A DNA stretch of 40,157 nucleotides. Origin: a virus (Duplodnaviria > Caudoviricetes). The translations under genes were made by a program, and so were the position numbers. Under the pieces are notes generated by a model that ran no database searches, was not told the DNA's origin, and was given only the letters and a program-made list of their open reading frames with translations. Of the stretch, positions 2,234-37,614 are shown in pieces. The stretch covers positions 1-40,157 of the IMG/VR virus record IMGVR_UViG_3300048988_000010. The stretch is one strand, 5' to 3'. Each line of letters begins with the position of its first letter. Within the stretch, counting starts at the first letter, position 1.

Positions 2234-3511
2234 ATGGCTGATGCACTATCTAAAAAGCAATTACAATACGTAAAAGAGGCTAATTCACGCTGGAATTTAG
2301 CCCACGGTTCCGTTCGTTGCGGAAAAACTGTAGGAACTGTATTCAAGTTCATGTTAGATGCTGTGCAATGCCCTGATAGCAAGATCTATATTGTTGGTCA
2401 CACATTCGATACAGCATATAGGAACGTTGTTAGATTGATCATGGAATCAGATGAGTTGGCTATATTCAGGCCATTTTGCACTTGGTCAGGCAAGAAGCTT
2501 TACTTTAGAGAGAAGGTCATTACGATTTTAGGTGCTAAAGATGAAGGAGCGATTGGAAACTTCCAGGGAGACACGCATTCTCTAACATATTGCGATGAGA
2601 TTACTCTATATCCTCCTTCCATTATTGATATGATTGACACTCGGTTAAGTTGCGTTCATAGCAAAGCACATGCTACGATGAATCCATCTTATCCCACTCA
2701 TAAAGTGAAAGGATGGATTGATAAAGCTCAGGAAGGAAATCCTAACTATTATCAGCTACATTTTACATTAGATGATAATCCGTATGTACCGCAGGACTAT
2801 AAAGACAGAATCAAGAATTCACTTTCGGGCGTATTCTATAAACGAAACTACTTGGGCTTGTGGTGCTTGGCTGAAGGGGCAATATTTGATTTTTTCGATA
2901 GAAACATTCACGTTTTACGTAAGCCTCCATGTGCTGCCGAATATTACATTGCAAGTATTGACTATGGCGCTTCTAATCCATTCGCATGCGTACTTATTGG
3001 CGTTTCCACGGGACAATATACCCAAACGGGAAAAAAGATGTGGGTCGAAAAAGAGTATTTTTGGGACCCTCAAGTTAAACAGCGTGGAAAAACAAACTCA
3101 GAGTTTGCATATGACATGGTTGAGTTCTTGCAAGATTACAACGTTAGGAATCTATACATTGATCCAAGCGCAGCCTCATTTAAGCTTGAAATGCGAAGAG
3201 CTGGATTGATAACGATGGACGCTAACAATGAAGTGCTAGATGGTATTCAAATGCTAGGTACTGAAATGCAGAAGGGAAACCTATTCATTTTAGATTGCTG
3301 CAAGAATTTGATTAGAGAGATGGAATCATATGTATGGGATAAGAAAAGCGCAGAGAAAGGGGACGACGAGCCAGTTAAGAAGGCAGATCACGCTATAGAT
3401 GCCCTCAGATATGCATGTGCGACACATAAAGTTCAAGTTTACCAGCCTTACAAAGATGTAGAGCGAGCAGATGAATGGAGAAAGAATAAGTATGATCACT
3501 ATAGAAGGTAA
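2234..3511 (+). CDS. terL: Terminase large subunit (PBSX/T4-like family)
   Basis: Walker A GSVRCGKT, Walker B YCDE, TMNP coupling motif, nuclease IDYG, YIDPSA and DHAIDALRY. Confidence 0.96.
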   Translation: MADALSKKQLQYVKEANSRWNLAHGSVRCGKTVGTVFKFMLDAVQCPDSKIYIVGHTFDTAYRNVVRLIMESDELAIFRPFCTWSGKKLYFREKVITILGAKDEGAIGNFQGDTHSLTYCDEITLYPPSIIDMIDTRLSCVHSKAHATMNPSYPTHKVKGWIDKAQEGNPNYYQLHFTLDDNPYVPQDYKDRIKNSLSGVFYKRNYLGLWCLAEGAIFDFFDRNIHVLRKPPCAAEYYIASIDYGASNPFACVLIGVSTGQYTQTGKKMWVEKEYFWDPQVKQRGKTNSEFAYDMVEFLQDYNVRNLYIDPSAASFKLEMRRAGLITMDANNEVLDGIQMLGTEMQKGNLFILDCCKNLIREMESYVWDKKSAEKGDDEPVKKADHAIDALRYACATHKVQVYQPYKDVERADEWRKNKYDHYRR

Positions 3512-3522
3512 GGAATATTCAA

Positions 3523-3702
3523 ATGTTTAACGGATCAGATCATATTTTAGAGCACTGGAAAGACGAAAAAGATAGAGCAGAAAGAAGAAAATTTCTTGAT
3601 TTAATTAGACCATTAGCCCATGAAAAAATAAGGACGGAAGAAGCGAGAGAGAAAGCTAGAGTAAAAACTAGAGAATCTTGGGTTAAGAGGAGGCTTGAAT
3701 AA
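3523..3702 (+). CDS. Small basic protein (59 aa), possibly a C-terminal remnant of an HNH endonuclease
   Basis: Read manually: MFNGSDHILEHWKDEKDRAERRKFLDLIRPLAHEKIRTEEAREKARVKTRESWVKRRLE; AAGGA RBS. Confidence 0.5.
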   Translation: MFNGSDHILEHWKDEKDRAERRKFLDLIRPLAHEKIRTEEAREKARVKTRESWVKRRLE

Positions 3703-3753
3703 ATAAAGTTTAAATTGTATGTTGAGGAGATAAAACATATATAGGGGGCTATT

Positions 3754-3870
3754 TTGAGTTTCAACGCACCACCATGGCAGAATGATGTAGAACCCACTCA
3801 GGGTAACGTGAGGGGCTGGTTAGATTCGCTTTACTCTAAGTTTCAACCTGTGGAACAGGCCCGGGCCTAG
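3754..3870 (+). CDS. Portal protein, N-terminal segment (ends at the TAG inside the 60-nt insert)
   Basis: AGGGGG RBS plus TTG. MSFNAPPWQNDVEPTQGNVRGWLDSLYSKFQPVEQAR is in the same frame as the main portal ORF. Confidence 0.75.
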   Translation: MSFNAPPWQNDVEPTQGNVRGWLDSLYSKFQPVEQARA

Positions 3871-3924
3871 CGCCCTCTGATTTCTTGTAATGAGAAGGAT
3901 GGGGGCGCTAGGTCTAAAAAATGA
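3863..3924 (+). other. 60-nt hairpin insert interrupting the portal reading frame
   Basis: 3863-3877 pairs with 3901-3915 (12 Watson-Crick + 3 G-U). In-frame TAG at 3868 and TGA at 3922. Confidence 0.8.
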
Positions 3925-5964
3925 TGGAATCAGGCCAACATAGACACTCTTTTTTATGCTGGCTCGCAGACTTTCGTTAATCGGTACTTCAATTTCTCGC
4001 CTACGACGTCGTATCAACAGTATTACTTCAATCTATGCCAGCAGCCCGTGAATATGATTACTGGTTATCAGCGTCAGCATAGAAAATCCATCATGTATCA
4101 GAATATTGACGGTGGAGACGCTCAGACAACAGACCAATACACAAAGCTAATTACGTCTGTAGCTAATCGTGGAGCTATTCACGAACAGTTTAGTAAAGCA
4201 TGTGAGCTTGCAGCTATATCAGGGATGGTTATGTTACAGCCTTATCTTGATTATAATGGAGATGATAGTGCACAAGGACAACTCAAGCTTAAAATATGGG
4301 AATATAACTCTTTTCTCGTCGACCCATATTTTCGCGAACCTGATATGTCTGACGCTCAATTCATCTGGTGTCAGGAGTACATTTCTAAAAGAGAAGCTGA
4401 AAGTCGCTTTCCTGACAAAATTGAAAATATTGCACCTATGGCAGGAACACCTCAGCGCTATGGATCTTTTTACTTTTTGCCAGAAAATTATAACATGGCC
4501 AGAAATGACCTCATGGTATTGTCGTATGTATGGTACAAATCGAAATCGAAGAAGAAACGTCTATACAGTGATAAGCGCAAACAGTTCTTCGATTTTGCCG
4601 GTGGTGATCCTCAGATGCAACAGATTCTGCAAGCGGTGCCCGATCTTGAAGAAGTGACAGTTGAAATGCCGTGTTGGAAATTAGCTTGTGTATTAAACGA
4701 GCAATTGATGTTCAATGGAGAAAATCCCATTGGTGACATTGGCGCGCCGATGATACCTGTATTTTGGAACTATGAACCACATATTAATTACTACGATCTT
4801 CGTGTCCGTAGTCTTATTAGAACAATGCGAGATCCACAATTTCTATTTAACTACAAGGTCATTACTAATAATGACATTGTTTCTGCTACTATCAATGCCG
4901 GATGGAAAAGGAAAGTAGGAGCTGTAGCTAACGAAGACAACTTGAAAAAGTCTGGCCAGGGATGGGATGTCATCATTAATGAAGGCTATGACATGACAGA
5001 CTGTGAGAAGCTGATTCCATCGGCTGTACCGCAATCAGACTTAGAATTAGCCCAACAAATGGACGATCTTATATGGAAAACTGCCGGCATTAACATTGAA
5101 AATTGGGCAGGACAGAACGATAAGCAGATCTCTACTCTTACTCAGCTAATGAAGATGGCAGCCAATTTAATGGTATTCCAGAAATACTTTGACCAGTGGG
5201 ATTACTCATTGAAACTAGTTGGGGATAAACTATTACATGTTGCATTGAATAATTGGAACGCTGAGAAAGTAGGACTAATGATAGGGGAAGAGCCTTCACC
5301 ACTGTTCTTTAGTCGCATGTTCAGTAAGTTTAATACAATGGTAGAAGAATCAGATCTAACACCTACACAGCAGAATTTACAAGCCCAACAGATGATGGAA
5401 ATCAATGAGAGATTCGGAAGAGAAGTATTCCCACCATCCAAAATCATACCTAAACTTAACATCACGGGCAAAGGCGAGCTTATTCCTTGGCTTGAGCAGC
5501 AAGAGCAGCAGCAACAAGCTGTTCAAAGCGAAGAAACAAACATCAAGCATTCATTCGAAGAAGCAAAATTGCGTGAATTATACAGTAAAGCAGCCGCTAA
5601 TATTGCTAGAGCAAGAGAGGATCACTCAAGATCTGAAAGCAATCTAGGCTTGTATGAAGAGCGTCTATCAATGATTGAAAGAAACCGTTCGCTTTCTCTT
5701 AAAGAGAAGCAACAGGCTCTAGCATTAATGCTCGAAAACATGGCTAAATTTGGTGAAGTAGACGTTAGACTTAAGAAAAATGAACTTGATCACATGAACT
5801 ATGAGCAAATGATTAAAGAAGAAGTTGAAAAAAGAGAAGTTGAGAGTCGGACAGGTGCTAATAAATTTCTAGCTGAGATTATGGGTGGCGGAATGAATCC
5901 ACCGCAGCAACAGAATCAGCAAATGCAGCAGCCCCAAGATCAAGGTCAAGGAATTGCTATGTAA
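3925..5964 (+). CDS. Portal protein, main segment (P22-like)
   Basis: Frame is open from TGG 3925 (WNQANIDTLFYAGSQ...FNLCQQPVNMITGYQRQ). Contains VRSLIRTMRDPQ and a Q-rich coiled-coil tail, and follows TerL. The ORF-track start at GTG 4048 is internal. Confidence 0.88.
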   Translation, partial: WNQANIDTLFYAGSQTFVNRYFNFSPTTSYQQYYFNLCQQPVNMITGYQRQHRKSIMYQNIDGGDAQTTDQYTKLITSVANRGAIHEQFSKACELAAISGMVMLQPYLDYNGDDSAQGQLKLKIWEYNSFLVDPYFREPDMSDAQFIWCQEYISKREAESRFPDKIENIAPMAGTPQRYGSFYFLPENYNMARNDLMVLSYVWYKSKSKKKRLYSDKRKQFFDFAGGDPQMQQILQAVPDLEEVTVEMPCWKLACVLNEQLMFNGENPIGDIGAPMIPVFWNYEPHINYYDLRVRSLIRTMRDPQFLFNYKVITNNDIVSATINAGWKRKVGAVANEDNLKKSGQGWDVIINEGYDMTDCEKLIPSAVPQSDLELAQQMDDLIWKTAGINIENWAGQNDKQISTLTQLMKMAANLMVFQKYFDQWDYSLKLVGDKLLHVALNNWNAEKVGLMIGEEPSPLFFSRMFSKFNTMVEESDLTPTQQNLQAQQMMEINERFGREVFPPSKIIPKLNITGKGELIPWLEQQEQQQQAVQSEETNIKHSFEEAKLRELYSKAAANIARAREDHSRSESNLGLYEERLSMIERNRSLSLKEKQQALALMLENMAKFGEVDVRLKKNELDHMNYEQMIKEEVEKREVESRTGANKFLAEIMGGGMNPPQQQNQQMQQPQDQGQGIAM

Positions 5965-6259: not shown

Positions 6260-6331
6260 GACGCTCTAGCTCAGTGGAAGAGTCCTGTTTTCGAGGCAGG
6301 GGGACGGTTTGTTCGATTCAACCGTGCGTCA
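6260..6331 (+). tRNA. Degenerate tRNA-like gene, anticodon TCG (Arg)
   Basis: Acceptor GACGCTC/GTGCGTC-A, D arm TAGCTCAGTGGAAGAGT, anticodon stem CCTGT/GCAGG with loop TT-TCG-AG, T arm GTTCGATTC. One mismatch each in the acceptor and T stems; no encoded CCA. Confidence 0.65.
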
Positions 6332-9361: not shown

Positions 9362-10522
9362 ATGGCTGAATATTCAAGACTAGCAAAAGGATCTTTCACA
9401 GCAACAGGAACATCAGCAATTGTTAATTTACCTTTCCAGCCTGACTATGTTGAATTGTGGAATTACACAAACATTAAGACGATTGCTGCAAGTAAAGTGA
9501 CTCGAGCATGGTGGGATAATAAACTTATTGATGGGTCTACTAATCCAACTATGATTGAAGGATATAGCTCAGGAAGTACGACAAGATTTGATGTCATATC
9601 AAATGATGCAACACATCCTGCAATCAATACGTTTTCGGCTGGACAATTATTACAATATGGCCCGTCAAAACAGATTGTAAGTGCTACGGCTGCTAATCCT
9701 CCTGTGTTTACTGTAACAGGACATGGTTATCAAGTTGGAGATACTGTCCTATTAAGAGGTTTATATCAGACTTCGTCTACAGGTATGGCTCAGATGGCAG
9801 GAATGATGTTTACTATCACAGCAGTGAGTGCAAACACATTTACAGTTAATTGGAATGCTAGCACTTCGGCTTATACTGCATTAAGTGGTTCGCCGGTTGG
9901 ATCAACTGTAGTTAAAGTATTGTATCCGTTCCTTTATGAACCGCAAGACAACTATGTTTCAGCGATTACTTTAGGGGCTAATACAACTATTACTACTACT
10001 ATGTATCACAATTTTGAAGTTGGTCAAGAGATTGCATTTAGGATTCCTCAACCTTGGGGAACAGTGGAATTAAATTCACTTCCTAATTTGTTGATTCCTG
10101 GTTCTCCGGCTTATGGATATGTTGTATCTGTGACAGACAATTGGACATTTGTATGCAATATTAACTCAAGTTCATATAGTGCATATACAGCCAATCAGCC
10201 GCTTACACCGACAAATACAGTACCGGGCCTTTCATGGCCTCAAGTTGTAGCTGTAGGTGATGTAAATACAGGCGGACTTGCAATTAGTCCGGGTTCTTCG
10301 TTATATCCAAGCCCTCAATTTCCAACATCTACTAATCGTGTACCAACGATTAATGGCCCGGCAATTAGAGGTGCATTTGTGAATAACACATCACAAGGAT
10401 TCACGATTGGAAGTGGAACAGCTACAGTGATAACGGCTGCTACTCTGATCACTGAAGGTGATATTGTGTATTGGCATGCTTATTTGCATGACTATAGTAG
10501 CCCAGGCTATACAAGTCTATAA
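9362..10522 (+). CDS. Virion structural protein (beta-rich, FCCH-like repeats)
   Basis: Probable start MAEYSRL at 9362 with GGGGG RBS. Contains ATAANPPVFTVTGHGYQVGDTV and a second similar HNFEVGQEI unit. Confidence 0.75.
   Translation: MAEYSRLAKGSFTATGTSAIVNLPFQPDYVELWNYTNIKTIAASKVTRAWWDNKLIDGSTNPTMIEGYSSGSTTRFDVISNDATHPAINTFSAGQLLQYGPSKQIVSATAANPPVFTVTGHGYQVGDTVLLRGLYQTSSTGMAQMAGMMFTITAVSANTFTVNWNASTSAYTALSGSPVGSTVVKVLYPFLYEPQDNYVSAITLGANTTITTTMYHNFEVGQEIAFRIPQPWGTVELNSLPNLLIPGSPAYGYVVSVTDNWTFVCNINSSSYSAYTANQPLTPTNTVPGLSWPQVVAVGDVNTGGLAISPGSSLYPSPQFPTSTNRVPTINGPAIRGAFVNNTSQGFTIGSGTATVITAATLITEGDIVYWHAYLHDYSSPGYTSL
10239..10272 (+). repeat. 34-bp exact repeat shared with 10894-10927
   Basis: CTCAAGTTGTAGCTGTAGGTGATGTAAATACAGG in both genes. 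Confidence 0.95.
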
Positions 10523-20692: not shown

Positions 20693-23083
20693 ATGCCACA
20701 AGTTTACGGTCTTGGCGGAATGTTTAATGTTGACGCAGGAACAATAATTCAAGATGGAGTTCCTTCATCAAATTTACGAGGAAGTATTGGGCAACAATAT
20801 TTTGATTCGTCAACTCTTCCTTTTACGGGATATGTCTACAATGGTTCTACTTGGGTTTCTGGTGGTAATGCATATGCTACTACAACATCACCGGGTATCG
20901 TAACTCTTTCTACTAGTATTGCAGGAGATGCAGCCTCGTTAACTTTAGTTCCTTCTGTCAAAGAGATTAAGGATTACGTTGATGGTGTAGCAGTTGCAGG
21001 CGCGCCCGTATCTACTACAGTTACGGCAGGTATTGGCCAACTGGCCACAGATGCGGAAGCGGTAGCAGGAACAGCGTCAACGCCGATCTTAGCATTATTT
21101 GTAACACCATCTAACTTGGCTTCTGTCTTTGCAGCACCACCCGCTACAGGAGGAACAACTCCAGCAGCAGGAGCTTTCACAACTATTTCAGCTAGTGGAC
21201 TTGCTACGTTAAGTGGGAGTGCAACTATTACTACAGGTGCCACAGCACTAAACTTAGCATCTGATGCATCTACAGGTGCGGTCAATATAGGAACAGGTGC
21301 AGGAGCCCGAGTAATTACGGTAGGAAATGTAACTGGAGCAACTGCCGTTGCTGTAAACACGGGAACAGGATCGTTTACTGTTACTTCAACCGGGACAGGA
21401 GATATCGTACTAAATTCTGCTGATACAGTTTTGATTGATTCGGCTGGTGTCCTTGAACTGAATTCTTCCGCTGGTGTTATCTCGATTGGAAATGATGCAG
21501 TTGCTCAAAATATTAATGTGGGTACTGGAGCAGCAGCTCGAACAATTACTCTAGGAAATAGTTCAGGAGGCACAACGGTAACGTTAAATGCTGGAACTGG
21601 TGGGGTAAACGTAGGAACCAATGCGATTGCTCAGACTGTAACAATAGGCAACCAAACAGGAGCTAGTAGCGTTATAGTAGATTCTGGAACCGGACCGATA
21701 AATATCGGTACCGCAATAGCTAAAACAATTACTATAGGTAATGTTACAGGAGCTACAGGAATTGTGGAGCGTGTAGGTACAGGTAACTTCAGTTTAGATG
21801 GTGTTACAAATTCTACATATGCAGTAGGGGCCAGCACCACAACTGGAACGATCACTGTAGGCGGAACAGCTCAAACAGGCGATTTAGTTTTAGGTTCCTC
21901 TAGCGGAACTAATGCTGTCAAGATAATGAACGGTTCCGGAGCTGGAACTTTAAGCTTAGGTGTTGTTCAAGTTGCAGGAGCCATTAATATGGGTACAGCA
22001 ATGACAACTGGAACGATCACTGTAGGCGGAACAGGACTTCAGACAGGGACAATATCCATAGCCCCAGGAACAGGAGCTCAAATTGTTAATGTGGCAACTG
22101 GTGGGACTGGAATAAAAACGGTTAATATAGGTACAGGAGCCATTGATAACGTGGTGACCATCGGGACGGTTACAGGAGCCGCTTCGCTTTCGTTACTTGT
22201 TGGAACAGGAAACTTTAGCCTTAATGGTGCTGCGACTTCTACATATGCAGTAGGGGCCAGCACCACAACTGGAACGATCACTGTAGGCGGAACAGCTCAA
22301 ACAGGAACTATGACTCTAGGTAGTTCTTCAGGCACTAATATTGTGTCAATAGGCGCTGGAACAGGTGCTACGACCGTTAATATCGCTGGAGGAGCAGGTT
22401 CGGCTAAAGCTGTCAACATAGCCACAGGAGCAGTAGCCAATGTAACAGTAATCGGGACAGTTTCAGGTGCTGCTAGCATAAGTATGCTTGTAGGAACAGG
22501 AAACTTTAGCCTCGATGGTGCAGCTACAAGTGCATACACTTTTGCGCCTTCAACCACTTCCGGCACGATTAATTTTGGGGGTACTGGAGCTAATACAGGC
22601 ACAGCAACAATTCTTGGTGGAACTGGAGTTCAAACAATCAATATAGCTGCTAGCACGGGTGTGAAGACGATTAACCTGGGTACAGGCGCGGCAGCAAATG
22701 CGATCCTAATCGGGACAAATACCTCGACCGCTAGTTTAGGGCTTCTTGCCGGAACGGGTAACGTAAACGTAACAGGTACTAATTTAAAGATAGCTACTAC
22801 TGGTAAGGGTCTTCAGATTAAAGCTGGTGCTGCTACGGATATGGCGGGAACAGCTATCCTAGTTTTAGGAACCATTGCTGTTTTGAATACAAATATCGCT
22901 ACGGGAGATATTATTTTTCTTTCGCGAGTATCTGCAAATGGTTCGGTAACTTTAGGTGAACTTAGCTATACAATTTCTAACGGCGTTTCATTTACTATCA
23001 CAAGTTTGATTTTAGGCACCCCTGCTAGCCCTCAAACCGCAGATGTATCCACAATAGCTTATTTTATTGTGCGTCCTGTATAA
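20693..23083 (+). CDS. Gly/Thr/Ala-rich repetitive tail fibre-like protein
   Basis: Probable start ATG 20693 (ATAGG RBS). Many VNIGTG / ITVGG repeats and an ATDAEAVAG motif. Confidence 0.7.
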   Translation: MPQVYGLGGMFNVDAGTIIQDGVPSSNLRGSIGQQYFDSSTLPFTGYVYNGSTWVSGGNAYATTTSPGIVTLSTSIAGDAASLTLVPSVKEIKDYVDGVAVAGAPVSTTVTAGIGQLATDAEAVAGTASTPILALFVTPSNLASVFAAPPATGGTTPAAGAFTTISASGLATLSGSATITTGATALNLASDASTGAVNIGTGAGARVITVGNVTGATAVAVNTGTGSFTVTSTGTGDIVLNSADTVLIDSAGVLELNSSAGVISIGNDAVAQNINVGTGAAARTITLGNSSGGTTVTLNAGTGGVNVGTNAIAQTVTIGNQTGASSVIVDSGTGPINIGTAIAKTITIGNVTGATGIVERVGTGNFSLDGVTNSTYAVGASTTTGTITVGGTAQTGDLVLGSSSGTNAVKIMNGSGAGTLSLGVVQVAGAINMGTAMTTGTITVGGTGLQTGTISIAPGTGAQIVNVATGGTGIKTVNIGTGAIDNVVTIGTVTGAASLSLLVGTGNFSLNGAATSTYAVGASTTTGTITVGGTAQTGTMTLGSSSGTNIVSIGAGTGATTVNIAGGAGSAKAVNIATGAVANVTVIGTVSGAASISMLVGTGNFSLDGAATSAYTFAPSTTSGTINFGGTGANTGTATILGGTGVQTINIAASTGVKTINLGTGAAANAILIGTNTSTASLGLLAGTGNVNVTGTNLKIATTGKGLQIKAGAATDMAGTAILVLGTIAVLNTNIATGDIIFLSRVSANGSVTLGELSYTISNGVSFTITSLILGTPASPQTADVSTIAYFIVRPV
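21811..22305 (+). repeat. 69-bp exact internal repeat (21811-21879 and 22237-22305) plus 31-bp partial copy (22004-22034)
   Basis: TTCTACATATGCAGTAGGGGCCAGCACCACAACTGGAACGATCACTGTAGGCGGAACAGCTCAAACAGG. Confidence 0.92.
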
Positions 23084-24225: not shown

Positions 24226-26160
24226 ATGGCAACAAATAATTCGATAAATTCATCAGATCCTTCTATAAATATAGGTTCATTGCAGTATTTTTCTAATTCG
24301 GCAGGAGACGCATACTTATCGGGAATCTGGTTAAAATGTGATGGATCAACTTATTCTCAAGCAACATATTCAGTTTTATTTAGTCGACTTGGTTTACTAA
24401 ATCCCGGTGGTACTATATGGACATTAAGAACAAGTGGAACATCTAGCGCTATAACAGCATTAACATATTCAGGCGTATTTGTAGCAGCCGGAAACGGAGG
24501 AACTATTCTAACCTCGACTGATGGTACTACGTGGACAGCAAGAACGAGCGGAACAGCAAGCGCTATATCAGCTCTAACTTTTGGTAATGCTTTATTTGTT
24601 TATGGCGGATCTTCCGGTTCTTTAGCCTCCTCCACGGATGCGATAACATGGACAGCTCGCACCAGCGGAACAACATCAAATATATTGGCTTTAACTAATA
24701 ATGGATCTGTTTATGTTTATAGTACGGCTAGTGGCAATTTTGCCTCCTCCACGGATGCGATAACATGGACGATTCGAGGTTCTCCAACGAATCAATCTGC
24801 AAGCACATTAGCCTATGGAAATGGTTTTTTTGTTTCTGGAGGCAGTGCAGGTGTAATTTGTACCTCAACAGATGGCACGACATGGAATACAAAAAACCCA
24901 TCAATAGGATCTACATCAGCAACTGCATCGATGCCTTTCTTTTTCGGAAATAATCTTTTTATTGGAAGTTCGTCAGGTGGCGTTTTATCAACATCCACAG
25001 ACGGCGTAAATTGGATAGGAAGAACTTCAGGAACGCTTAGCAATATAAACGCTGTAACATATGGTACTGCATACGTTTACGGGGGAACAGCGGGATTAAT
25101 TGCCTCCTCCACGGATGCGATCACCTGGGTCGCGCGCACATCTAATACGGCGTCCGTTGTTAGTGGTTTAACATATGGGAATGGCCTTCATGTCTACGGA
25201 ACTGCTGGAGGAGGAATAGGAACCTCGACTGATGGTACTACGTGGACAGCAAGAACGAGCGGAACAGCAAGCGCTATAAGTCAGGTAGTATATGGTACAG
25301 CTTATGTGTATGGAGGAACTGGAGGTGTAATTGGGTCAAGTACTGACGCAATCACATGGACAGTTAGAACGTCCAATACAGTATCTATAATACAAGCTCT
25401 AGTGTATGGTACTGTGCACGTCTACGGAACTGCTGGAGGAGGAATAGGAACCTCGACTGATGGTACTACGTGGACAGCAAGAACGAGCGGAACAACATCG
25501 GGAATATTCGGTTTAGCATACGGAAATAATACATACGTTTACGGGGGAACAGCGGGATTAATTGCCTCCTCCACGGATGCGATCACGTGGACAGCAAGAA
25601 CAAGCGGAACAACCAGTTCAATAACGGGAATAGTATACAAAGCGACAAGTTTTTATGCGGCTGGAAATTCATTTGTATTAACAAGTACTGACGCAATCAC
25701 ATGGACACAAACACAGCCATCAAATACAACATCATCAATAGGCGCGTTATTGTATAGCTCTCAATTTGTATACGGAGGGTCTGGAGGAGTAATTGGCACC
25801 TCAACGGATGGGGTCACATTCACAGCCCGTACTAGCGGAACTACATCTAGTATTTTGGGATTAACTTATAACGGTTCTATGTATGTTGCGTCTGGAGCTG
25901 GTGGAACAATTTTAACATCGAGTGACGCAATCACTTGGACATCTCAAACTTCAGCAACCACTAGTCAGTTAAGTGCTATAACAAATGGCGGTACTATATT
26001 TGTAGCGGGTGGTACTGGCGGAGTAATCGAAACGTCAAACACAACCTATGCATATAATTCAGCAACTCAATTTGTAGTACCGACAGATGCCGTTTTAGGA
26101 ATTACAACGGAATTGTCAACTAATTTCAAACGATCACTTTATATCAGGGCCTTTTCATGA
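24226..26160 (+). CDS. Tail fibre / receptor-binding protein: collar-like domain plus BNR-like propeller repeats
   Basis: WLKCDGSTYSQATYSVLFSRLG followed by many STD(G/A)xTWTARTSGT repeats; GAGGG RBS before ATG 24226. Confidence 0.75.
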   Translation: MATNNSINSSDPSINIGSLQYFSNSAGDAYLSGIWLKCDGSTYSQATYSVLFSRLGLLNPGGTIWTLRTSGTSSAITALTYSGVFVAAGNGGTILTSTDGTTWTARTSGTASAISALTFGNALFVYGGSSGSLASSTDAITWTARTSGTTSNILALTNNGSVYVYSTASGNFASSTDAITWTIRGSPTNQSASTLAYGNGFFVSGGSAGVICTSTDGTTWNTKNPSIGSTSATASMPFFFGNNLFIGSSSGGVLSTSTDGVNWIGRTSGTLSNINAVTYGTAYVYGGTAGLIASSTDAITWVARTSNTASVVSGLTYGNGLHVYGTAGGGIGTSTDGTTWTARTSGTASAISQVVYGTAYVYGGTGGVIGSSTDAITWTVRTSNTVSIIQALVYGTVHVYGTAGGGIGTSTDGTTWTARTSGTTSGIFGLAYGNNTYVYGGTAGLIASSTDAITWTARTSGTTSSITGIVYKATSFYAAGNSFVLTSTDAITWTQTQPSNTTSSIGALLYSSQFVYGGSGGVIGTSTDGVTFTARTSGTTSSILGLTYNGSMYVASGAGGTILTSSDAITWTSQTSATTSQLSAITNGGTIFVAGGTGGVIETSNTTYAYNSATQFVVPTDAVLGITTELSTNFKRSLYIRAFS

Positions 26161-36744: not shown

Positions 36745-37614
36745 TTACTTATTTTTAGGTATCCACCATTTATTCTCTAATGTTTTTCTCAAATAGCCAA
36801 TAATATTTGGAACATCTTCACCTTTAGATTTTTTCCTGGCTATTTGACGTGTAACGTATCCGGATGCATTTGTAATTTCTTCATCAGAATATTTTGCACA
36901 GAATGAAAGTGCAGTCATTTCATCACATCCGTTTTTCATGAACCAGTTAAATGCTTGTCTTCTCGTATCCAGAGAAGAAACAGATAAATCTTTAGAATTT
37001 AAAGGACATACAGGAGCATCTTTAGGTGCTGGTTGTTGTTCATTAAACAAAGGGTTATTATTAATCTTGTTCTTCTTTGTGTCATGTGGTGACACTGCTC
37101 CCTGTATGGCGCCGTCATTTGGTGACAGTGCTTCGTAGGCGCCGTCATTTGGTGACAGTGCTTGCATCTCTAAAATAGATTTTCTTGTATTCATATATGC
37201 CCGATTGTATTTCCAGATATCAGCAACAATTAGCTTATGATATACAGTACAATTTTTTTGTATTCCGTCTTTTACTTTAGCTTTTTTATGTGCAGTGAGA
37301 ATAATCAAAGGTTTTCCATCAAGTTCATTAAACTTCTGTAAAAGTTCTTTTTTAGCATTGGTTACAGACCCAGCGCTCATATTGCAAAGTTCGGCTAAAT
37401 GATCTCTGTTCATCCAACAAGCTCCCGAATCCCCAGCTATTCTTTTGATTACTCGATATAATTCCTTAGCATAAATTGACAATCTTTTTGTAGTGATTTT
37501 CCCATCTTTCCCAATTTCACCGTATGTCAAATGGTCGATAATATGAGGAACCATTGCAAAATGTGAAGGTTCTGGATTTTGGAAACTGATTGAATAAAGT
37601 TCTGCTGGTGACAT
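36745..37614 (-). CDS. Replication initiator / replisome organiser
   Basis: Winged-HTH-like N-terminus (LYRVIKRIAG..CWMNRDHLAELCNMSAGSV), internal tandem repeats, C-terminal NIIGYLRKTLENKW. AGAAGG RBS before ATG 37614. Confidence 0.75.
   Translation of the reverse strand: MSPAELYSISFQNPEPSHFAMVPHIIDHLTYGEIGKDGKITTKRLSIYAKELYRVIKRIAGDSGACWMNRDHLAELCNMSAGSVTNAKKELLQKFNELDGKPLIILTAHKKAKVKDGIQKNCTVYHKLIVADIWKYNRAYMNTRKSILEMQALSPNDGAYEALSPNDGAIQGAVSPHDTKKNKINNNPLFNEQQPAPKDAPVCPLNSKDLSVSSLDTRRQAFNWFMKNGCDEMTALSFCAKYSDEEITNASGYVTRQIARKKSKGEDVPNIIGYLRKTLENKWWIPKNK
37079..37162. repeat. Three iteron-like repeats, probable replication origin
   Basis: GTCAT(T/G)TGGTGACA(G/C)TGCT at 37081, 37114 and 37144, each with a GTCA-N5-TGAC dyad; AT-rich tract at about 37040-37078. 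Confidence 0.75.

Follow-up and report, generated by a model that had tools for sequence, protein, structure and literature searches.

How does a phage make full-length portal protein from a gene that is interrupted, 37 codons after its start, by a 60-nucleotide (nt) hairpin containing two in-frame stop codons? The question is raised by a viral DNA of 40,157 nt (IMG/VR record IMGVR_UViG_3300048988_000010, analysed over its whole length and referred to here as the window), which encodes a terminase, a P22-like portal and a capsid protein. The comparative analysis described below suggests, with a probability of about 0.7, that ribosomes cross the hairpin by translational bypassing from CGG 3862-64 to TGA 3922-24, in which case the native portal protein of 716 amino acids (aa) would be made.

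The portal frame opens with TTG at 3754, behind a Shine-Dalgarno (SD)-like GGGGG (3744..3748; this and all other features of the locus are on the + strand), and homologues have an SD and a start at the same place. It runs for 37 codons (3754..3864), the last of which, CGG (Arg37; 3862..3864), is the putative take-off codon. The non-coding insert, or coding gap, occupies the next 60 nt (3865..3924) and holds TAG (3868-70) and TGA (3922-24) in frame; its first codon, GCC 3865, precedes the UAG directly and is used 81 times across 34 genes of the window. The frame picks up again at TGG 3925 and continues for 679 codons to the stop (codons 38-716; 3925..5964), a segment identified as a P22-like portal (PHROG 156 portal; Pfam PF16510), and 37 plus 679 codons give 716 aa. 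The earliest in-frame start beyond the gap is GTG 4048. A first-pass annotation, made from the letters of the window, had given these coordinates, the TTG start and the codon counts, all of which held when the sequence was re-read. The hairpin itself (3863..3915) begins with the final two bases of CGG and consists of a 15-bp outer stem (3863-77 with 3901-15), which includes the GCC/GGC core invariant in the family described below and has three G-U pairs on the sense strand, together with a 6-bp inner stem; a single-stranded A6 spacer (3916..3921) separates it from the putative landing triplet, TGA (3922..3924). Folding of 3855-3940 reproduced both stems and the G-U pairs of the first-pass annotation, at -41.3 kcal/mol (z -5.09; 0/200 shuffles equally stable), and the hairpin is the most stable 60-nt segment of the genome on either strand. 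The element occurs only once in the window, and nothing resembling a terminator or a promoter is present at 3400-4300.

An assembly slip as the origin of the insert, which the annotation had set out as a possibility to be checked against reads, is ruled out. A single Logan contig with 60.8x coverage is identical letter for letter, insert included, although it probably derives from the source sample and is hence not independent; no insert-free variant was present among the source contigs, which drop rare variants. Independent confirmation comes from a related locus, L015, which has the same insert plus one A (61 nt) in a portal gene that differs from that of the window at 73% of synonymous sites. 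Between the two, proportions of non-synonymous (pN) and synonymous (pS) differences are 0.017 and 0.73 for portal and 0.012 and 0.79 for terminase, and the insert is unchanged save for the one A, whereas in the codons on either side 21-44% of synonymous sites have changed. These results, together with the distribution of relatives described below, show that the insert is real, selected and mobile.

The position of the junction was established with portal homologues, for which the best 80 of 230 relatives in IMG/VR were kept; scans for insert patterns covered all of IMG/VR, scans with the upstream anchor 36/64 parts and the metagenome set 28/64 parts. Uninterrupted relatives read EQ[SA]R-WNQ, the motif that the annotation had proposed as diagnostic, which sets the junction at Arg37-Trp38. 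Residues R37, W38, N39 and Q40 are invariant in 93/93 aligned full-length homologues, and Arg and Trp are adjacent in all 121 distinct uninterrupted alleles (Arg codons: CGT 34, CGC 30, AGA 24, CGA 23, AGG 8, CGG 2). Homologues that start near 4048, which the annotation had considered to be damaging to its proposal, were not what was found; they begin behind an SD at the equivalent of 3754. Among 20 insert-bearing alleles pN/pS is 0.21 before the gap (over 29 codons) and, over the 41 codons that follow it, 0.16, with pS saturated at 0.8-0.9, as compared to 0.15 and 0.21 for the same two segments of intact alleles. The 41 codons after the gap are stop-free in 20/20 alleles and without in-frame ATG, GTG or TTG in 14/20. 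Beyond the gap the frame is open to the normal end (658-679 codons) in 14/20 alleles and to the end of the available DNA in 5/20, and is broken in the remaining 1/20 by a second element only. Since purifying selection acts on both sides of the gap, with no stops or, in most alleles, starts after it, it is very likely that a joined portal protein is made from the insert-bearing alleles.

A search with flank-anchored patterns, that is, without regard to shape, recovered 20 distinct hairpin inserts at the R37/W38 junction (a slash marks the point of interruption throughout), the window's included, with lengths of 45-61 nt. CGG precedes the insert in 20/20, as opposed to its use in 2/121 uninterrupted alleles, and an in-frame stop is present in 20/20, at codon +2 in 11 and at codons 6-9 in 9. 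The final triplet is CGN in 15, TGA in 2 and AGA, CTT and CTA in one each; by base, C is first in 17/20 and G second in 18/20, while the third is free (A12 T5 G2 C1). The spacer is A-rich and 7-11 nt long in these elements, positions -6 to -9 being A in 15-18 of the 20. The annotation had suggested that related genomes might have inserts at this site with different sequence but the same fold and phase: the fold is indeed kept, with covariation, across the 20 inserts, but the phase is not, 6/20 being other than multiples of three. In one alignment register all 182 cells (100%) are paired, with two-sided changes at 8/14 pairs and with 12/13 rows being portal elements; the other register, biased by its inclusion of elements recovered with a hairpin-shaped pattern, is 95.7% paired with two-sided changes at 7/13 pairs. 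Neither score was matched by any of 500 shuffles, a control that is inflated by the relatedness of the elements. Within the stems, 53 G-U pairs against 5 A-C pairs are counted on the sense strand. The only portal elements that end in CTN (L048 and L068) are also the only ones with CTC as the first insert codon, and take-off may have moved by one codon in these, adding a Leu.

A second portal site, together with six more sites recovered by site-agnostic hairpin scans and inspection of 80 of 239 terminase loci, extended the family to about 40 related hairpins at eight sites in portal, terminase and tail genes, seven of them besides R37/W38. When the GTCTAGCGCC subtype was scanned for irrespective of site, 8 matches lay in portal genes and 2 were due to chance; 114 and 30 matches from later scans were mostly chance or intergenic and were discarded by eye or with an ORF-break filter (ORF, open reading frame). 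Locus L032 has a second, 52-nt element at portal R174 (CGG>CGA, denoting the codon before the gap and the final triplet), where CGG is used in 0/88 intact alleles. In terminase genes elements occur at KAR/QLG (L383; CGG>CGG, the junction being contiguous on the PHROG profile at positions 56 and 57), AADR/E (L386; CGG>CGA, with the junction fixed by the 7/80 loci that reach that far), DEL/H (CTG>CTG, two distinct elements), AEGL/N (CTG>CTG in three, CTA in one) and RRLW/D (ten distinct elements, TGG>AGA, CGC or TGA, with an extra CGA variant missed by the count). The last site lies in a minor tail gene (L421; TGG>TGA; contiguous on the PHROG profile at 398 and 399). Junctions in GC-rich terminase genes were fixed via uninterrupted alleles, and two genes, the L032 portal and the L380 terminase (AEGL/N), have two elements each. 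All 40 elements share the GCC/GGC core (GC, CG and CG pairs), a spacer of 5-13 nt after the stem, and a putative take-off codon that lies within the 5' arm of the stem, closes it and has G as its third base. The end triplets agree at the first two bases in 26/40 elements, and in a majority at 7/8 sites (CTG>CTG 5 and CTG>CTA 1 at the two Leu sites pooled), against 4/440 positions in the preceding 12 nt, a background that is A-rich, same-site elements moreover being related. Separately, intergenic hairpins of 34 nt with the same GCTT..GCCCC / GGGGC..AAGCC arms were observed upstream of an unrelated gene in phages of 44% GC (L573-L577, L579, L583, L589 and L599); it is possible that these are a source or free form of the element.

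These features can be accommodated by a mechanism in which the stem, including the take-off codon, would pause the ribosome, and the peptidyl-tRNA-Arg would be released from CGG 3862-64 when that codon is drawn back into the re-forming stem. Refolding would then move the mRNA until the spacer and final triplet reach the P site, where the tRNA would re-pair on TGA 3922-24 and decoding would continue at TGG 3925, yielding a predicted junction peptide of AR/WNQANIDTLFYAGSQ. The 5-13-nt spacer could set the landing place, so that partial pairing would suffice. The portal is present in 12 copies, for which a modest yield of hopping would probably be enough. Re-pairing of a retained peptidyl-tRNA is part of bypassing as described in 10.1101/2022.08.31.505936, and refolding mRNA as the driver of T4 bypass is argued for in 10.1101/2024.12.09.627546. 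Since re-pairing of a retained peptidyl-tRNA predicts exactly that the final triplet should track the upstream codon, stand in the downstream frame and have a free third base, the end triplets favour this mechanism. Moreover, TGA cannot serve as an A-site codon, and must therefore be either occupied in the P site or removed. The hop from CGG to the UGA position had been among the routes put forward in the first-pass annotation, and the junction, the family and the codon matching at 7/8 sites make it the best-supported of them.

Several observations weigh against it. The landing triplet of the window is imperfect, in that TGA would be read by the CGG-reading tRNA with a wobble at position 1, position 3 being set by the host anticodon, and the five non-CGN ends listed above (TGA twice, AGA, CTT and CTA) depart from the rule at R37/W38. 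At the terminase RRLW/D site the end triplets match in only 1/10 distinct elements, although W is native there. The codon directly after take-off is a sense codon in 40/40 elements (eight different codons), leaving no stop as trigger; a mini-SD 5-7 nt before the landing triplet is found in 0/20 portal R37 elements; and the nascent peptide is different at every site. Finally, the matching end triplets could also be a retained target-site duplication. With respect to the RRLW/D elements (L376, L377 and related loci), which after Trp end in Arg codons or TGA and not in TGG, codon matching offers no explanation. A mini-SD-like triplet 5-7 nt upstream of landing is present in 6/10 of them as opposed to 2/30 elements elsewhere (8/40 overall), and may compensate for the unmatched ends.

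A helper role for a phage tRNA was considered and rejected. An atypical tRNA-like gene with anticodon TCG, which is missed by Rfam, follows the portal operon of the window (6260-6331, +), and tRNA-like genes with the same body, a TAT anticodon and an altered anticodon arm are present both in L015, which has the same insert and the same TGA, and in the uninterrupted loci L001, L002 and L003. Rfam tRNA models gave hits in 0/4 insert-bearing records searched.

The principal competitor supposes that the hairpin is excised from the mRNA and the ends ligated, the agent being either a pair of enzymes yet to be named or a group I ribozyme encoded elsewhere, with translation then proceeding as normal. 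These phages are rich in introns. Core-less group I mini-introns, elements of about 30-55 nt in which just the U-G P1 helix, the guide and the terminal G are present, interrupt nine loci one codon upstream of the hairpin site, between S or A36 and R37 (L009, L031, L072, L079, L087, L098, L108, L114 and L123), and further examples are seen at W/LD (L023, L246 and L265) and QP/I (L033 and L035). In 9/9 of the former a complete group I intron lies a few codons downstream and may splice the mini-intron also. The int-alpA RNA of Rfam (RF02996) scores above gathering near the portal in intron-bearing loci L005, L023, L057, L058, L072 and L087. Group I introns (Rfam RF00028; PMC11878797) and the mini-introns resemble the hairpin elements in sharing a 90-nt hot zone of the portal gene and in adjoining the same HNH genes, and group I cores occur elsewhere in 4/10 insert-bearing records, which counts in favour of excision and against bypassing. 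A signal of structure only would, in addition, account for the portability of the element, the absent stop trigger and the unmatched Trp site. The introns, however, have a U-G P1, a terminal G and a core within or just after them, and the hairpin elements are without all three. The U-G P1 is present, and the terminal G found in 9/9, in the mini-introns one codon upstream, whereas in the hairpin elements the only universal register is one in which exon 1 ends in G (40/40), with no U-G P1 at the 5' end. A catalytic core is near the portal in 9/9 mini-intron loci but in 0/20 hairpin-bearing portal regions, and a profile built from 21 cores gave no match in the window (E<=10), nor did Rfam, which at gathering threshold misses the hairpin element as well as the group I introns of 20 loci. 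The sole register that restores the native residue in 40/40 elements has no fixed final base (A21 G8 C6 T5); that ending mostly in G restores it in 29/40 and cuts after G or T. Nor would splicing call for a final triplet that follows the codon upstream while its third base is free. Of the RNA excision raised in the first-pass annotation, then, the group I form is not supported, while excision by some other route is retained as an explanation that we consider unlikely. We know of no bacterial hairpin-splicing route of this kind.

The other explanations fare worse. The gene could be split, with a peptide of 38 residues functioning together with a 638-aa protein that has its own start at GTG 4048, or with the N-terminus being dispensable; gene callers do annotate such alleles as proteins of about 634 aa, and unusual start codons are common in the portal family. 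This is improbable given that the 41 codons from the gap to GTG are as conserved as in intact alleles (pN/pS 0.16 vs 0.21), usually lack a start codon, as noted above, and show no SD-start pair at the gap, and that terminase elements interrupt Walker A/B-region motifs, where splitting is implausible. A shade less credible is the view that the alleles are dead, struck by a selfish palindrome and carried by defective or co-infecting phages. In its favour, every record is metagenomic and TGA in place of CGA in the window could be decay; against it, the stems have evolved compensatorily, the insert stayed constant between the window and L015 though synonymous sites nearby diverged, the frame beyond the gap is open in nearly all alleles as far as their DNA extends, and the 60.8x contig shows no insert-free version, although contigs drop rare variants. 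Precise excision from the DNA itself in some members of the population, with the excised copies supplying the portal in the manner of HUH transposases, would suit the hairpin form and the mobility between sites, and is very improbable in view of the G-U excess on the sense strand and the lack of insert-free variants in the source contigs. A scan of 35 window proteins gave no transposase, and genomes freed of the insert in an essential gene would, besides, soon take over. Least probable of all are the two remaining proposals of the annotation, that both stops are read through with 20 extra residues added, or that ribosomes hop from GCC 3865 to GCC 3934 with loss of WNQ. The window insert is in frame, with GCC followed by UAG, and 14/20 inserts are multiples of three, but readthrough fails as a family mechanism because the other 6/20, L015 with the same element at 61 nt among them, are out of frame. 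The GCC hop would delete WNQ, invariant in 93/93; the codon after CGG varies, most relatives having GTC, CCC or CTC there without an in-frame partner, and a stop follows at +2 in only 11/20.

Why such an element should persist in essential genes is suggested by what lies upstream. Between the terminase and portal genes of the window is the C-terminal remnant of a free-standing HNH endonuclease gene (3532..3702, +), matched by phmmer to residues 153-218 of a 218-aa ORF in L015 (E 3e-34). The L015 ORF is intact, with Pfam HNH_3 at residues 124-166, whereas the remnant amounts to the final 57 codons, with the catalytic motif deleted and about 810 nt lost; the terminase-to-portal distance is 245 nt in the window and 1054 nt in L015. 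An HNH gene stands directly upstream of the portal in 13/19 insert-bearing as opposed to 5/119 uninterrupted loci (Fisher p 3e-10, a value that overstates independence since the loci are related and the profile was seeded from these same loci; two loci with less than 200 nt upstream were omitted), and likewise in 8/9 mini-intron and 6/8 other intron loci. All portal interruptions but one fall in codons ~22-51. A quick tree built on the portal protein beyond the gap requires 10 changes to account for 14 insert-bearing alleles, with well-supported branches forcing no fewer than 5 of these, and L015 is ~100% identical to the intact L001 at the 3' end and 81-85% identical over the first 600 nt, a pattern that reads as a conversion tract. 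The insert could feasibly have spread by destroying the target at which the neighbouring HNH protein, a putative homing nuclease, would cleave, and the comparative data point to protection from such a nuclease as its purpose, in place of the control of portal dosage or timing that the annotation had put forward as a possibility. Aside from the overstated p value, this argument is weakened by the presence of an HNH gene at 5-13 uninterrupted loci, and by the fact that the link was not seen at terminase sites, where the same profile and a crude classification were used.

To our knowledge, programmed long-distance bypassing in bacteria has been demonstrated for the T4 gene 60 cassette family only. 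In 10.1101/2022.08.31.505936 the 50-nt gene 60 cassette and its mobA-linked homologues are described as gaps of about 50 nt at an invariant residue, with a stem whose 5' arm includes the take-off codon and an A-rich 3' part, all of which apply here. Their final triplet is matched or wobble-matched, a feature that the present elements share in part, given the imperfect TGA of the window and the unmatched RRLW/D ends; as here, too, a free-standing homing endonuclease lies upstream and the cassette can outlive it, and in the case of mobA the gap protects against the nuclease. Bypass in gene 60 requires a stop codon, the nascent peptide and several RNA signals. The authors of that preprint, Manning and Atkins, remark that nothing similar had been reported from other phages. 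The present elements differ in lying in other genes (portal, terminase and tail, with an HNH_3 neighbour, as opposed to topoisomerase Gly46/Asp45 with mobA) and in having no sequence likeness to the T4 cassette. Their stem, of 15-20 bp, makes up most of the gap, whereas T4 has a short stem with a tetraloop. Take-off is not followed directly by a stop or known hungry codon, and the portal elements have no mini-SD. They occupy eight sites with unrelated nascent peptides and with Arg, Leu or Trp at the putative take-off. The mitochondrial byps of the yeast Magnusiomyces are likewise short GC-rich mobile inserts (27-55 nt, against 45-61 nt here). They are found at many sites, with no apparent dependence on mRNA context, and have some imperfect take-off and landing pairs and a stated latitude in the P site; they need an unused A-site codon and mitochondrial ribosomes, unlike the present elements, which would have to work with bacterial ribosomes and ordinary sense codons. 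A third comparison is with the terminase of the Streptomyces phage phiHau3, whose gap is reportedly 10 nt. It is also a bypass in a DNA-packaging gene, with the junction peptide identified by mass spectrometry in E. coli, but it is driven by a rare UUA codon across a very short gap, without a long hairpin, and a regulatory role was proposed (PMC10732093). The hairpin element thus appears to work most like the T4 cassette and the yeast byps while being a member of neither, because it has no stop or unused-codon trigger and differs from T4 in the mini-SD and the nascent-peptide context. A search of the accessible literature, which did not extend to subscription journals and preprint supplements, found no report of hairpin coding gaps of this kind in portal or terminase genes.

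A broader proposal, to which we give somewhat less than even odds, is that the element is a self-contained, portable hop cassette for bacterial ribosomes, made up of a long hairpin and an A-rich ruler and acting without a stop, rare codon, mini-SD or special peptide. It would work behind any codon ending in G (Arg, Leu and Trp having been seen), with landing set by distance even where no matched codon is available, and would have spread through unrelated phages, in their packaging and tail genes, as a means of erasing the target of a homing nuclease that is additional to the two provided by full and core-less group I introns. Excision of the bare hairpin from bacterial mRNA by a protein catalyst is less likely than this, and rather doubtful. 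Should the hop be real, the one well-studied example, that of T4, would gain a bacterial counterpart that is portable. The 40 natural variants, at eight sites and with matched, wobble and unmatched ends, form a mutational series for the minimal needs of hopping, which could show if mRNA refolding alone drives the hop, as in the 'driver' model of 10.1101/2024.12.09.627546. A context-free cassette of 50 nt would, in turn, be a compact tool with which to tune protein output. At a more practical level, it would follow that gene calling systematically yields falsely truncated portal and terminase genes in these phages.

Some further observations concern the portal gene and the remainder of the window. 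Start codons at 120 intact portal loci are led by TTG (29), ATT (24), ATG (19), ATC (14), ACG (13) and GTG (13); about half of the family starts at ATT, ATC or ACG behind a strong SD, which suggests deliberately low portal output, and insert-bearing and intact portals are alike in this respect (12/20 vs 61/115 canonical starts, p 0.63), giving no sign of start-codon compensation. An AlphaFold model of an intact homologue places R37 and W38 in a helix of residues 31-48, but the confidence score (pLDDT) is <50 for residues 38-75 and the model was not used as evidence. The window had no match among cultured phages, and its six GTDB matches are short contigs from metagenome-assembled genomes of unrelated taxa. 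Large ORFs of the tail region contain internal protein repeats (24400-25950 and 21500-22350; ~38-39 aa in at least 7 copies, with 31-147-nt repeats also), and an exact 34-nt repeat is present at 10239 and 10894. A tandem direct repeat of ~28 nt within the replication-initiator ORF (37106-37167) may represent origin iterons.

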